A stretch of 64,000 nucleotides of DNA. Source: Phormidesmis sp. GTDB taxonomy: Bacteria > Cyanobacteriota > Cyanobacteriia > Leptolyngbyales > Leptolyngbyaceae. The DNA is taken from NCBI GenBank assembly GCA_965248535.1, contig CBDFJR010000005.1, forward strand, positions 1,440,001 through 1,504,000, in the 5' to 3' direction. Every line of letters begins with the position of its first letter. Positions within the stretch are counted from its first letter, which is position 1. Below are positions 35,829 to 40,376 of this stretch, in pieces. The translations under genes and the position numbers were made by a program. The notes beneath the pieces were generated by a model. The model was given only the letters and a program-made list of their open reading frames with translations, made no database searches and had not been told where the DNA came from.

Positions 35829-37512
35829 CTAACGAAGTCGCTTTTGCCAGTCGGCGATTGCTTTTTGCGCCTCGGCATAGGCTTGAGGACGCTCTTTGGG
35901 CACTAGTTGAGCCGCCGCGATCGCTTGCTTATAGGATCGGTCTGCTGCCCGTCTCTTAGCAATGTCTAAAATGTCGCGGCTCCAGCGCTCAATATCGATT
36001 TGAGCTTGAGCATAGAGCGGATCGGTCTCAGGCACTTGGCTAGCCCGCTCGATCGCCCTATTAGCATCAGAGGCCGAAATCGGTTTAATCAATCCTCTCG
36101 CTTCGTTGAGAATCGCCTGACTGTCTCTGACCGGAGATAGACTCGCTGTAACAGCCGGAGACGGACTTGCGGACGCGACAGGCGAAGGACTCACGGCCGC
36201 GATCGGAGAGGGCTTATTCAGCAGGTAGCTTGGTTGAGTTGGGCACGATCGCTACACTGGGTTTGGGAGAAGTTGGCGCTTCGACTAGGGGCACGATCGG
36301 CTGAGAACTCGTTGCCGATTTTTGCCCCCAAAACGTTGACCAATTGCGAATAAACACTCCCGCCAACAGCAGCAAGAGAATGGCACTGCCGCCAAACAGC
36401 AGCCGCTCCCAAAACATCTGATCCTGTGCCTGGGTCTCTTCAGGAGCACTCGGAGTCACCCCAGGCTTTGGAACCTGCGGAACGGTAGAGATAGGAGCAA
36501 CCTCATCGCTTAACGCTTCTTGACGAGATTCAACAGGCATGGTTTTCTCAAGCTCTGGCTCAAGCGGGGCAGTTTGAGAATAATCAGCAGGCAACTCATA
36601 GGGGTTGGGCAACCCGTCTGAAGTCGGGGCAACGTTGAGGTTTGAGTCAAACAAATCCTCTTTGATCAAAAATGGATTTGCCTCACCGGGATCTGCCTCA
36701 GTCAGAGCCATCTCACTCGGAGTCGTTTCACTCGGAGTCACCCAAGAATCTGCCTCCGTCCAATTAACGGGAGTAATCACTAAATTCAGTTGATCCAGTG
36801 ACGCGAGGGCGATCACCGGGTCTTGAATCGGGCGATCGTTGTGCTCACACAATTCTGGCAGACGGCTGTTGAGAAACTCTTCTAAATTTGCCAGCGTCGA
36901 GCATTGGTGAGCGCGCAACCCTTCTAACAGCGTGGCGGTAAACAAGCCGTGACCTAGCTCTAGCGCCTCATGAGAAAACTGGTCAGGTTTGCTGGCTATC
37001 ACCGTCGCGATGCGAGTTGCGCGGGCAAGATCTGCGATCTCAAGCCCCACCTTCTCACCCGAAAAAGCGGCTTGGCTGTGGTTAATATCCATCAACACCA
37101 AAATGTCTTGAGTCGGCAAGGTTTTGAGGCTGTCAAACAGAGATCGCACCGGAACGCCCATATTGGCGATGTCTGACGGGTCAGCCTCGATCGGCAGCAA
37201 ATAATCCTGTCCTTTCCAACAGACCCCATAGCCGCTAAAAAACACCCACACCAGATCGCCCGGCTGAATTAATTCTCTACCAAAATAATTGAGCCAGCCC
37301 TGAAGATTGCCGCGACTGGGGTAGGTCGATCGCCCCGTCACTGAGGGAGATGTGTCTGTAAAGAGAATGCAGCGATTGGGCAAAAATCCGGCTTCACTCA
37401 CCAAACATTCACACAGCGCCTGGGCATCTTGTTGTGCAAATTTTAGGGGCTGAAGAAATTGATAGTGATTGATTCCAACGGCGATCGCCCAATGGTTGGC
37501 CATTTCAGACAC
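35829..37512 (-). pseudogene. Peptidase C14 pseudo-orthocaspase with TM and C-terminal helical domain, split by a 1-bp frameshift near 36214-36219
   Basis: WAIAVGINHY, FFSGYG, MDINHS, GHGLFT. GCTGAATAAGCCC minus one base reads on into KPSPIAAVSPSP of ORF 35829-36194. Confidence 0.75.
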
Positions 37513-37724: not shown

Positions 37725-38228
37725 ATGGTTGCCGATCGCTCTTGCCAAAAGCCCCGTCGATTTGTTAGACCAAGACCCACGGCGATCGGGGTCGCTGTTT
37801 GGCTGGGGGTGACGGGCGTGATGTGTTCTGTTGCAGGCACGATCGCGCCGCGAGTCGTTCAAGCTTACACGACTAGGGTTGATGTGTCCCTCGATCGCTT
37901 GCCTGACGAAAGCTATGATGCACTGATTCGCAGAGCCGATATTGTTGCTAGGGCGGCGGCGCAGCGTGGCTTCGATCGAGACATTCTCACCAGCGAGGTC
38001 TCGGTGATTGTGATCGGGCGCAATCAAGGCGCAGAAACTCCCATTTTGACTCTAGATGTCAGTCGAGTGCAGTGGAGCGGCCGCCCAGATACGAGACGTT
38101 GGGCAACTTATTACAAAACGTCGGCGGTGCTGTTGGGGTTTGAGAAACTGTCTCCGCCTCCTATAGCGGTGACTGCTCCCACTCCGGTTGTGGCACCGAC
38201 TCCTGGCACCAACGCACCCAAGCGGTAG
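37725..38228 (+). CDS. Conserved cyanobacterial secreted hypothetical protein
   Basis: Signal-like segment, then AYTTRVDVSL...ARAAAQRGFDRDIL...RRWATYY. Confidence 0.75.
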   Translation: MVADRSCQKPRRFVRPRPTAIGVAVWLGVTGVMCSVAGTIAPRVVQAYTTRVDVSLDRLPDESYDALIRRADIVARAAAQRGFDRDILTSEVSVIVIGRNQGAETPILTLDVSRVQWSGRPDTRRWATYYKTSAVLLGFEKLSPPPIAVTAPTPVVAPTPGTNAPKR

Positions 38229-38450
38229 GCTAGGACTCCGATAGAGCAACACGAGGCTGCTCTTAAAGACCCGCAGTGGAATGTGCTGGGTGGGTTTGGG
38301 CGCGAGGTGAAGACAATCTCCGATCGCTAGACTGCGTTCATGCAGTTTTCTAATTGCCAACCTGCTCAATATGATGTCAACACGCAAGCATGAATGACAT
38401 CAGAGAGTCGAGACTCAATGGGATCAAGATGCTCTCCATAATCGATCTAC

Positions 38451-38693
38451 CCGATCGCAGGTCACATTCCCGGAGCGGTTAACTATCCCTGGCAAGACGC
38501 GACTGACGCAAATGGGTTGATTCGTTCGGCGCGAGAACAGCGCGATCGCTGGGCATCCTTGTAATCTGCGGATGAGATTGTGGTCTATTGTGGGTCAGGG
38601 GTCACGGCTTGCGTCAATCTGTTGTCTTTAGCGATCGCAGACATTGACACCGGAAAGCTCTATGCAGGTAGCTGGAGTGATTGGTGTTCTTAT
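38451..38693 (+). pseudogene. C-terminal fragment of a rhodanese/3-mercaptopyruvate sulfurtransferase (SseA-like)
   Basis: PIAGHIPGAVNYPW...RWASL*SADEIVVYCGSGVTAC...LYAGSWSDWCSY; in-frame TAA at 38562-38564; 5' half not found. Confidence 0.85.
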
Positions 38694-39213
38694 AGAAACG
38701 GGAGAGCCTGAGAACCCGCAAAACCCATCGTGCTTCAGCCGTGGGATGTAGCGAGGGTTCTCGCGCCTGCGGCAGCAGGCAGAGTCCAGCAATCTTCATG
38801 AAATCGCACTCCGATTTGTGATAATTTTGTACTTGTGGAAAGGTAATCAACCACTTTAAAAACCTTGCTGTCGAGAGACACGCTGAACCTTGAAAATTGA
38901 ATCTATGCGGTTCTACTGCATTTTTCTAGACTCCCCCTCGCAGTAGGTAAAAGATTTAGAGGAGCTAGACAAACAGCATTTTGAGGCCTATCTGCTTCAA
39001 ACTTAAACAGGACTTGCGGCGCTCAGTGCTGAAGACGGGTTTCCCGTCGCAGGCAACTGAGTAAGAGAAAAGCAAATAGGGTAGGGCATACCCGAATTAA
39101 CGCTTGGGGAGAATCCCACCTCTGGTCTAGATGACGCAAGGACTCTAGGTTAAGTGGTTTCATTGAACCAAGAATCCCACGGCTCCGCAAAGCTAAAGCC
39201 GTGGGAGTGTCAA
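38694..39213 (+). mobile_element. Non-autonomous IS200/IS605-family element (no tnpA/tnpB ORF)
   Basis: Preceded by TTAT; left hairpin 38724-38745 with 5' AAAA; right hairpin 39175-39206 with 5' GAAT; ends TCAA; no target duplication; removal restores both flanking gene ends. Confidence 0.85.
38885..38896 (+). promoter_or_regulatory. boxA-like antitermination motif
   Basis: GAACCTTGAAAA, the same as the boxA of cyanobacterial rRNA spacers; an extended -10-like TGTGATAAT lies at 38817-38825. Confidence 0.5.
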
Positions 39214-39233
39214 CTTTGACTAACCAACCGCAG
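39077..39233 (+). ncRNA. Putative TnpB omega-RNA scaffold plus flanking guide
   Basis: GGGTAGGGCATACCCGAATTAACGCTTGGGGAGA...TTGAACCAAGAATCCC...GGGAGTGTCAA resembles cyanobacterial tnpB 3' ends; the guide would be the ~20 nt after TCAA. Confidence 0.6.
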
Positions 39234-40376
39234 CGATCGCACAGTTTCGAGGATCACGTCAGCGGCGCGATCGAGGTCTTCACCCGTGTTGAATCGCCCA
39301 ATCCCCACCCGAATCGACGCATAGGCTAGCTTGTCAGAAAGCCCCAACGCTTGAAGGACATGAGACGGCTCAATCTTGGCAGATGTGCAGGCAGAACCCG
39401 ACGATACCGCGATCGCTGGCTGCACGCCCAACAAAAGAGCTTGCCCATCTACGCCGTCTACGCTGAGGTTGAGATTTCCCGGTAGGCGTTGGGTCGGGTG
39501 TCCATTTAAGTGAACGCCGTCTAGCTGACACACTCGCTGCCACAGACGATCGCGCAATTTGGTTAAGCGCAGTGACTCGGCTGGCATCTCTGCGATCGCT
39601 AGCTCAACCGCTTTGGCAAACCCGACGATCTGGGGCGGATAGAGAGTGCCCGATCGCAGCCCCCGCTCGTGGCCGCCGCCGTGCATTTGAGGCGCGATTT
39701 GAACTCTAGGATTTCGTCGCCGCACATACAACGCGCCGATGCCCTTGGGGCCATAGACTTTGTGAGCCGTCAGAGACATTAAATCGATCTGCATTGCCTC
39801 GACATCTAGCGGAATTTTTCCGATCGCTTGCGCTGCGTCAGTGTGAAATAGCACATGGTGCTTGTGACAGAGATGCCCGATCGCGGCTAAAGGCTGCAAC
39901 ACGCCAATCTCATTATTAGCCGCCATGATCGACACCAAAATCGTGTCCGATCGCAGGGTCTTTTCTAACTCATTCAGATTGACTAAACCATCGGGTTCTA
40001 TGGGCAAAATGGTGACTTCAAACCCTAACAATTGCAGATAACGACCCGGATCAAGAACAGCATTATGCTCTGTCTGAAGGGTAACAATGTGTCGTCCTCG
40101 ATCGAAAGACGCTTCAGCAACACCCTTAATCGCCAGATTGTTGGCTTCGGTGGCACCACTCGTAAACACAATCTCTTTAGGGGTCGCGTTAATCGAATCT
40201 GCCAGAGTGGTTCGGGCTTGCTGAATCGCGGCTTCTGCCTCCCACCCATAGAGGTGCCCCCCGCTCGACGGGTTGCCAAACTGTTGAGTGAAATAGGGCA
40301 CCATGGCGGCTAGCACCCGATCATCTACGGGCGTAGTCGCTTGATTATCAAGATAGATCGGACGTTGAGCCATCAT
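39210..40376 (-). CDS. iscS: Cysteine desulfurase (IscS/NifS)
   Basis: YLDNQATTP, FTSGATEANN, AHKVYGPKG, SSGSACTS. Confidence 0.93.
   Translation of the reverse strand: MMAQRPIYLDNQATTPVDDRVLAAMVPYFTQQFGNPSSGGHLYGWEAEAAIQQARTTLADSINATPKEIVFTSGATEANNLAIKGVAEASFDRGRHIVTLQTEHNAVLDPGRYLQLLGFEVTILPIEPDGLVNLNELEKTLRSDTILVSIMAANNEIGVLQPLAAIGHLCHKHHVLFHTDAAQAIGKIPLDVEAMQIDLMSLTAHKVYGPKGIGALYVRRRNPRVQIAPQMHGGGHERGLRSGTLYPPQIVGFAKAVELAIAEMPAESLRLTKLRDRLWQRVCQLDGVHLNGHPTQRLPGNLNLSVDGVDGQALLLGVQPAIAVSSGSACTSAKIEPSHVLQALGLSDKLAYASIRVGIGRFNTGEDLDRAADVILETVRSLRLVSQS

Follow-up and report, generated by a model that had tools for sequence, protein, structure and literature searches.

Palindrome-associated transposable elements (PATEs) were reportedly first named in Haloquadratum. 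Among the described transposons closest to the element considered here is IS608 of Helicobacter pylori, which is moved by a Y1 HUH transposase, TnpA, and in which the left guide AAAG is paired with the target TTAC and the right guide GAAT with TCAA, as set out in PMC5934647. The PATEs and PATE-like omega-RNA elements of Geobacillus stearothermophilus are presented in the preprint of Meers et al. (PMC10055086) as protein-less IS200/IS605 derivatives that keep both ends, rely on TnpA in trans and “often encode” omega-RNAs requiring TnpB in trans. The same source describes, for ISDra2 and ISGst, a TnpB/omega-RNA homing model in which the guide is the flank of the element and the TAM equals the TnpA target, so that the resealed donor site becomes the only target. 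Arc (ribbon-helix-helix, RHH) repressors have also been reported for IS605-family transposons (bioRxiv 10.64898/2026.09.24.754181).

We analyzed a window of 64,000 nucleotides, C5:1440001-1504000, from a 5.03-Mb genome in five contigs (of which C2 and C5 are cited below) that looks cyanobacterial, with kaiB and kaiC and abundant GCGATCGC words. Between the remains of a sulfurtransferase gene and iscS lies a 520-bp ORF-less IS200/IS605 element. We take it, with a probability of about 0.8, to be a PATE-type non-autonomous, IS608-like mini-transposon that has lost tnpA and tnpB and has kept both ends together with a guide-RNA-like gene.

Ends, copies and a parent element

The element (38694..39213, plus strand) starts directly 3' of TTAT (38690..38693), its target/cleavage tetranucleotide and expected TnpB TAM, and its junctions read ...TGTTCTTAT / AGAAACGG...GGGAGTGTCAA / CTTTGACT, with breaks at 38693/38694 and 39213/39214. 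BLAST searches across the genome recovered two further full copies, C2:1792740-1793259(-) and C2:1965371-1965888(-); all three start right behind TTAT (TTAT/AGAAA...) and finish in ...GTGTCAA, in flanks that are unrelated to one another. The window copy differs from the other two at 3 and ~7 positions outside a 12-nt loop (~99% identity), and this near-identity marks the copies as young. The loop itself, 39185-39196 in the right hairpin, reads as the exact reverse complement of its counterpart in three other copies (two full and one truncated); this inversion between the hairpin arms is seen in the window copy only and leaves the stems unaltered.

A 1760-bp IS at C2:2302815-2304574 shares the left end of the element (38694..38786; 96% identity over 93-99 bp), is preceded by TTAT, ends in TCAA, and qualifies as the parent. 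Its tnpA is an open 134-codon frame on the minus strand (C2:2302921-2303274; PF01797, 124.5 bits, profile positions 1-121) and its tnpB an open frame on the plus strand (C2:2304235-2304429; PF07282, 79.1 bits). In the three full copies and the parent alike, insertion is 3' of TTAT in unrelated flanks and the target is not duplicated. The initial annotation had proposed an ORF-less element of just this extent, with base-exact ends, no target duplication, further copies with the same ends behind TTAT and a parent bearing tnpA and tnpB; the copies and the parent bear this out, none of the three full copies having other ends or a duplication. They also support its assignment of the element as a non-autonomous, IS608-type member of IS200/IS605, which would be mobilized by a TnpA encoded elsewhere, the parent in the same genome being one tnpA-bearing source. 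Because the genome holds 11 PF01797 matches, the acting TnpA is not fixed as that of the parent; PF07282 matches number 28, of which 26 lie above the cut-off.

The left guide AAAA (38720-38723) is followed by an imperfect palindrome (38724-38745), recognized from the sequence and from a single-stranded DNA fold and letter-identical to that of the parent. The right end (39172..39213) comprises GAAT (39172-39175), a hairpin (39176-39205) and the cleavage tetranucleotide TCAA (39210-39213). Both guides had been assigned correctly from the start; the interval originally given for the right hairpin, 39175-39206, is reached once the T-A closing pair is included and then shares one base with GAAT. 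Folded as single-stranded DNA, the right hairpin is more stable than all shuffled versions (z -4.05; 0/200 equally stable), and the left hairpin alone is weak (z -1.41; 19/200). The two hairpins have the same orientation and a common foot, CCCA.../...GTGGG. Searching for left ends with an exact 7-mer of the right hairpin arm worked in one locus only, because the left palindromes are imperfect.

The genome itself offers a natural control in support of the earlier idea of TTAT selection by AAAA: AAAA goes with TTAT in the element and its parent, and a tnpB element just beyond the window, C5:1505230-1506658, has the left guide AAAG and is located after TTAC, the IS608 combination (PMC5934647). 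One exception to the guide rule is an older left end at C2:933290, which has AAAA but follows TCAT. A related copy, C2:982472-982828, is without a left end and terminates in TCAT.

The element contains no protein gene: its ORFs, at most 78 aa, are short and overlapping on both strands, all six frames are interrupted, and neither PF01797 nor PF07282 matches anywhere in it. Its description as ORF-less thus holds, but the element is not empty, for its interior comprises a promoter-like site and a conserved structured RNA.

A promoter-like site and a conserved RNA module

A promoter-like site search returned a single site within 38600-39400 (shuffle mean 0.3), at 38798..38825 on the plus strand, composed of ATGAAA, a 16-nt spacer and the extended -10 motif TG-n-GATAAT; among 30 aligned copies from other genomes, 24 have TGnTAnnnT at the identical offset. 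Downstream, from ~38835 to the right end, runs a structured RNA module of ~330 nt, which in relatives is always ORF-less, is 66-93% identical, and always stops immediately ahead of a variable hairpin, after which comes (G/A)GGAGTGTCAA.

The 5' domain of the module (38835..39018, plus strand), 184 nt long, is specific to ORF-less elements. In an alignment of 30 copies that was fitted to the covariance model, a procedure that favors that model, 93.3% of cells are paired, 13 pairs are changed on both sides, and pairing rises to 99% in two nested helices. The covariation score is reached by 0 of 500 shuffles, and pairing in slid controls is 29-46%. Applied independently to the same alignment, RNAalifold gives 17 pairs, 12 of them with compensatory changes. 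A DNA search located the domain in 27 of 401 genomes and 22 of 169 genera of the class. At most of these 27 loci both halves of the RNA are present, and they are contiguous there; tnpA or tnpB within 1.5 kb of the 27 loci is confined to two short partial matches at or near a locus edge. When this genome was searched for the domain (nhmmer, model R2), only the five module copies matched; R2 run without filters on 3 loci reached 9 bits at best, and tnpB lay over the match at 0 of 13 loci with weaker class-wide matches. The module is therefore not merely the left-over 3' end of a tnpB gene, since its 5' domain was not found in the tnpB genes examined.

The 3' domain (39064..39213, plus strand), supported by covariance model R1 and by compensatory changes, has relatives at the 3' ends of tnpB genes. 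Its last 142 nt contain 33 predicted pairs, 10 of them with both-side compensatory changes among 16 sequences. R1 yields 12 matches in the genome at E<1e-8: the five module copies at 150-154 bits, full-length matches (1-142) across the 3' ends of five tnpB ORFs at 52-90 bits (90 for the parent), and two other ORF-less right ends, C2:933290-933757 and C2:598364-598574, at 63 and 65 bits. Both of these are without the 184-nt 5' domain; the right end of C2:933290-933757 has as its partner a left end 89% like that of the window element and sited after TCAT. The R1 match ends on the last base of the element, 39213, and all 26 right ends listed, including the 5'-truncated TCAT copy, finish in GTGTCAA or GTGTCAT, with differing flanks where these are available. 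Judged from sequence and predicted folding, the position and nature of the 3' domain are those of a TnpB omega-RNA scaffold. The one omega-RNA feature that is absent is encoding in cis with, and overlapping, a tnpB gene, and that absence defines the PATE variant. An Rfam scan of 38000-40000 at E<=1 found no family for the element and only a chance-level match inside iscS, and protein-level searches gave no more than marginal traces of tnpB (blastx, E 0.02; hmmsearch, E 0.03 at best).

If the scaffold works as in the omega-RNA model, a read-through RNA would have its guide in the 20 nt that follow, 39214..39233 (plus strand), which are antisense to the 3' end of iscS. In a search tolerating <=3 mismatches, the first 16 nt of this predicted guide have their sole exact genome match in their own flank. 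Nor does the 16-nt flank of any other copy recur exactly in the genome, which fits the expectation for homing guides, and for four flank guides the genome holds no trans target with TTAT and <=1 mismatch.

A palindromic mini-repeat of 48 bp, recognized by comparing copies, is nested in the module at 39019..39066 (plus strand); it is missing there in several copies and occupies two other positions, in either orientation, in others. Both a locus elsewhere in this genome, C5:460122-460169(-), and a different species of the genus carry a 100% identical version, and the repeat looks like an independent, tiny mobile one. In a copy from a related genome (L028, G002:C93:1-1759), a group II intron splits the module at the position equivalent to 38899/38900 of the window; its reverse transcriptase/maturase ORF matches RVT_1 (E 2.1e-37) and GIIM, and the Rfam Intron_gpII match (50.8 bits) ends precisely where the module resumes.

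The insertion sites of the module have no common gene context among the loci inspected. One sister copy (L005, G000:C5:1702640-1703243), whose module is 93% identical and whose end hairpins are different, sits in the kaiB-kaiC spacer after ...GTTTAT. That spacer measures 20-45 nt in relatives and is occupied by a different miniature repeat in one of them (G007). Homology to relatives stops at ...GTTTA on the left and resumes immediately at the right; a base-exact empty site was not obtained for this copy, the relatives' spacers being too diverged. Some sister copies also bear a ribbon-helix-helix ORF of 41 aa, oriented divergently from the RNA promoter, namely L017:1826-1948 (G002:C37; Pfam RHH_1, E 9.5e-6) and two loci of G070 (L091 and L113), and copies with the RHH ORF have neither tnpA nor tnpB. 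In the kaiB-kaiC copy the divergent RHH ORF aligns with the 41-aa G002 query from residue 8 onward only, and its first codons may have been lost or changed.

From the observed ends, copies, parent, promoter-like site, RNA structure and scaffold homology we infer a cycle in which mobilization, read-through and TnpB use are the predicted steps. A TnpA, either the Y1 transposase encoded by the parent or another compatible one in the genome, would bind both hairpins on the top strand, use AAAA and GAAT to locate TTAT and TCAA, peel the element out as a single-stranded circle and paste this circle 3' of another TTAT. The internal promoter would drive an RNA of ~380 nt that extends past the right end and into the flank; a resident TnpB could take it up in trans as an omega-RNA, with the flank serving as guide. 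Once the empty site (TTAT plus flank) is resealed, TnpB would cut it, and the copy would be restored when the break is repaired from the sister chromosome. R1 scores 90 bits on the scaffold of the parent against ~150 on the module itself, so that the TnpB of the parent is a candidate partner of the module RNA.

Two other readings of the interior start from the same data. The RNA might be a functional RNA unconnected with TnpB that rides on TnpA-mobilized ends, for instance a regulator built on the 5' domain or an antisense/terminator cassette: the conserved, covarying 5' domain was found in none of the tnpB genes examined, the transcript would run antisense into iscS, the right end gives iscS a terminator-like hairpin, and one sister copy is located between kaiB and kaiC. 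We consider this improbable, since the 3' domain shares homology of sequence and structure with five tnpB 3'-end regions and, like omega-RNAs, extends exactly up to the cleavage site; the lack of an Rfam match and of a common gene context at the inspected insertion sites also speaks against it. Even harder to credit is the view that the copies are immobile, stranded relics and the RNA-like module decaying tnpB sequence devoid of function. Three copies ~99% alike outside the loop, alongside an intact-looking parent, are not what decay predicts, nor are compensatory changes that preserve the module in 22 of 169 genera of the class, never with an ORF, or a promoter whose offset is constant in 24 of 30 copies; what such decay would account for is the lack of a junction or circle in run contigs, the copy C2:982472-982828 that has no left end and stops at TCAT, and the weak echoes of a TnpB tail at the protein level. 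A PATE-type mini-transposon with a guide-RNA-like gene thus remains our preferred reading of the element.

The flanking genes and the insertion site

To the right of the element, on the minus strand, an iscS-type cysteine desulfurase of 388 aa occupies 39210..40376 (Pfam Aminotran_5, E 2.7e-85). As had been claimed, the TCAA end of the element supplies its stop codon, the TGA of the ORF being the complement of element bases 39210-39212 (TCA). The tail of the protein is LRLVSQS* in the window, compared with LRLVGKDLLV*, LRLT*, LDLKN* and LRLVGKDRLT* in relatives; its end ...VSQS* replaces the reconstructed ...VSQR*, and the length of the gene is kept. On the iscS strand, the right-end hairpin together with TTCTTGGTTC scores as terminator-like directly past the gene. 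The insertion would thus have cost iscS almost nothing: its stop appears to have been replaced in frame and a terminator-like hairpin gained.

The left flank is a different matter. Homology to the sulfurtransferase (rhodanese) genes of relatives is limited to 38440..38693 (plus strand), the last ~85 codons (254 bp), which end in TCT TAT, whereas the frames in six same-genus relatives span 276-305 codons from stop to stop. The fragment contains two in-frame stops, one of them at a Gln codon of the relatives, and its 43-aa tail matches no Pfam family. The original proposal that the element landed in the overlapping ends of two convergent genes consequently holds for iscS and fails for the sulfurtransferase, which is a 5'-truncated relic. 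The stretch between an upstream ORF (37725-38228) and the relic, 38229-38439, is unrelated to the sulfurtransferase gene; within it, 38381-38436 match another locus of one relative (G007:C403), which places a second breakpoint here. Further upstream, 36214-37512 (minus strand) is an ORF of 432 aa in which a caspase-like Peptidase_C14 domain (E 5.6e-13) is combined with a long tail of low complexity.

Removal of the element joins TTAT to a right flank that starts CTT TGA and gives a sulfurtransferase end ...WSDWCSYL*. The relatives' proteins end in ...WSDWCSY (one in ...CSH) followed by S*, *, LNP*, LNP*, LSDVNLNS* or LRDSVGRQN*; TTAT is ancestral in the gene, as the TCT TAT codon pair, in four of the six same-genus relatives, and a Leu codon, CTN, comes next in four of six. 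These features make the reconstruction reasonable. It is less evident that the two flanks were ever neighbors. The sulfurtransferase flank adjoins iscS at 0 of the 10 iscS loci of relatives examined, and no empty site was found in them: where sulfurtransferase and iscS matches share a contig they are far apart, and otherwise they are on separate contigs. The DNA flanking the two genes in relatives maps to scattered places of this genome, and gene order near both varies within the genus. The usual sulfurtransferase locus, C2 ~415130, now has other genes and no element. An exact 26-nt pattern of the right flank retrieved 0 records from metagenome_contigs and 0 from genome_contigs; neither collection yielded a conspecific sequence.

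These findings make it possible, though in our estimate rather unlikely, that the locus is a rearrangement junction and not a simple insertion, produced when a copy lying after TTAT at the 3' end of a sulfurtransferase gene recombined with another lying beside iscS. Deleting the element would then restore no ancestral site, and the overlapping gene ends would never have existed. Recombination is a live alternative because the sulfurtransferase and iscS homologies both end within a few bases of the element. In its favor are also the lack of the sulfurtransferase flank at all 10 iscS loci of relatives examined, the survival of only a 254-bp fragment of the sulfurtransferase, the position of that gene's usual downstream neighbor, which maps to C2:413651-415114, where other genes are present now, and the variable gene order. 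Its reciprocal product, on the other hand, was not found: the flanks of the other copies are unlike the DNA downstream of iscS or of the sulfurtransferase in relatives. The right flank CTT, moreover, resembles CTN, the Leu codon found after TAT or CAT in four of six relatives, a two-base match that weighs little. A simple insertion 3' of TTAT is, in our estimate, the likelier reading.

Contigs from two runs of one organism, possibly the source sample, contain the filled site only, with both junctions free of differences, and two low-share runs gave contigs with only parts of the RNA module. Neither an excision junction nor a circle was seen in the run contigs, which drop rare forms. The sole joint from 38693, to 39285 (depth 2), was considered as an excision junction and rejected, the joined piece being only ~88% alike.

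Comparison with known systems

The kind of element described here is known, protein-less IS200/IS605 derivatives with omega-RNA having been published already (PMC10055086). Less expected are the wide spread of the family among cyanobacteria and a conserved 5' domain that never occurred together with tnpB; in the open-access texts searched we found no published description of the cyanobacterial RNA module. One could go further and suppose that the ~330-nt RNA defines a cyanobacteria-wide, RNA-only mobile lineage that has evolved apart from any nuclease gene, a satellite borrowing TnpA for movement and TnpB for retention, with the 184-nt 5' domain as a new functional RNA module. We offer this as a speculative and somewhat doubtful proposal. 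If it were true, the 5' domain might recruit TnpB or out-compete other RNAs for it, direct processing, or regulate independently. Whatever its function, the conserved domain gives experiments a way into two questions: how elements with only a guide RNA persist, and what an omega-RNA acting in trans needs beyond its scaffold. The element also illustrates the IS608 guide/target rule, with AAAA/TTAT and AAAG/TTAC in one genome; the modularity of these systems, in which TnpA ends, guide RNA and TnpB are separable; and near-neutral insertion, with an element end that replaces a stop codon and adds a terminator-like hairpin.

With IS608, as described in PMC5934647, the element shares subterminal imperfect palindromes, a guide tetranucleotide 5' of each hairpin, the identical right pair GAAT/TCAA and insertion 3' of a tetranucleotide without duplication. 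It differs in its left pair, AAAA/TTAT in place of AAAG/TTAC, and in being gene-less; its left cleavage site, moreover, lies 30 nt from the hairpin and its right one 8 nt. Like the PATEs of PMC10055086, it is protein-less, keeps both ends and would need TnpA in trans, but its RNA has the additional covarying 5' domain, not found in the tnpB genes examined, and its family spans many cyanobacterial genera with differing end hairpins. In common with the TnpB/omega-RNA homing systems it has a scaffold at the right end that reaches the cleavage site; unlike them it has no tnpB in cis, and its RNA is predicted to come from a promoter of its own and not from a tnpB message. The Arc repressors reported for IS605-family transposons (bioRxiv 10.64898/2026.09.24.754181) find a parallel in the divergent 41-aa RHH ORF of sister copies (the kaiB-kaiC copy, G002:C37 and two in G070); the window copy lacks this ORF, which in the sister copies accompanies the RNA gene only, with no tnpA or tnpB. 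Apart from tnpB linkage on the side of the omega-RNA scaffold, the element appears, from its sequence, to combine the tested defining features of such a scaffold with those of an IS608-like non-autonomous element.
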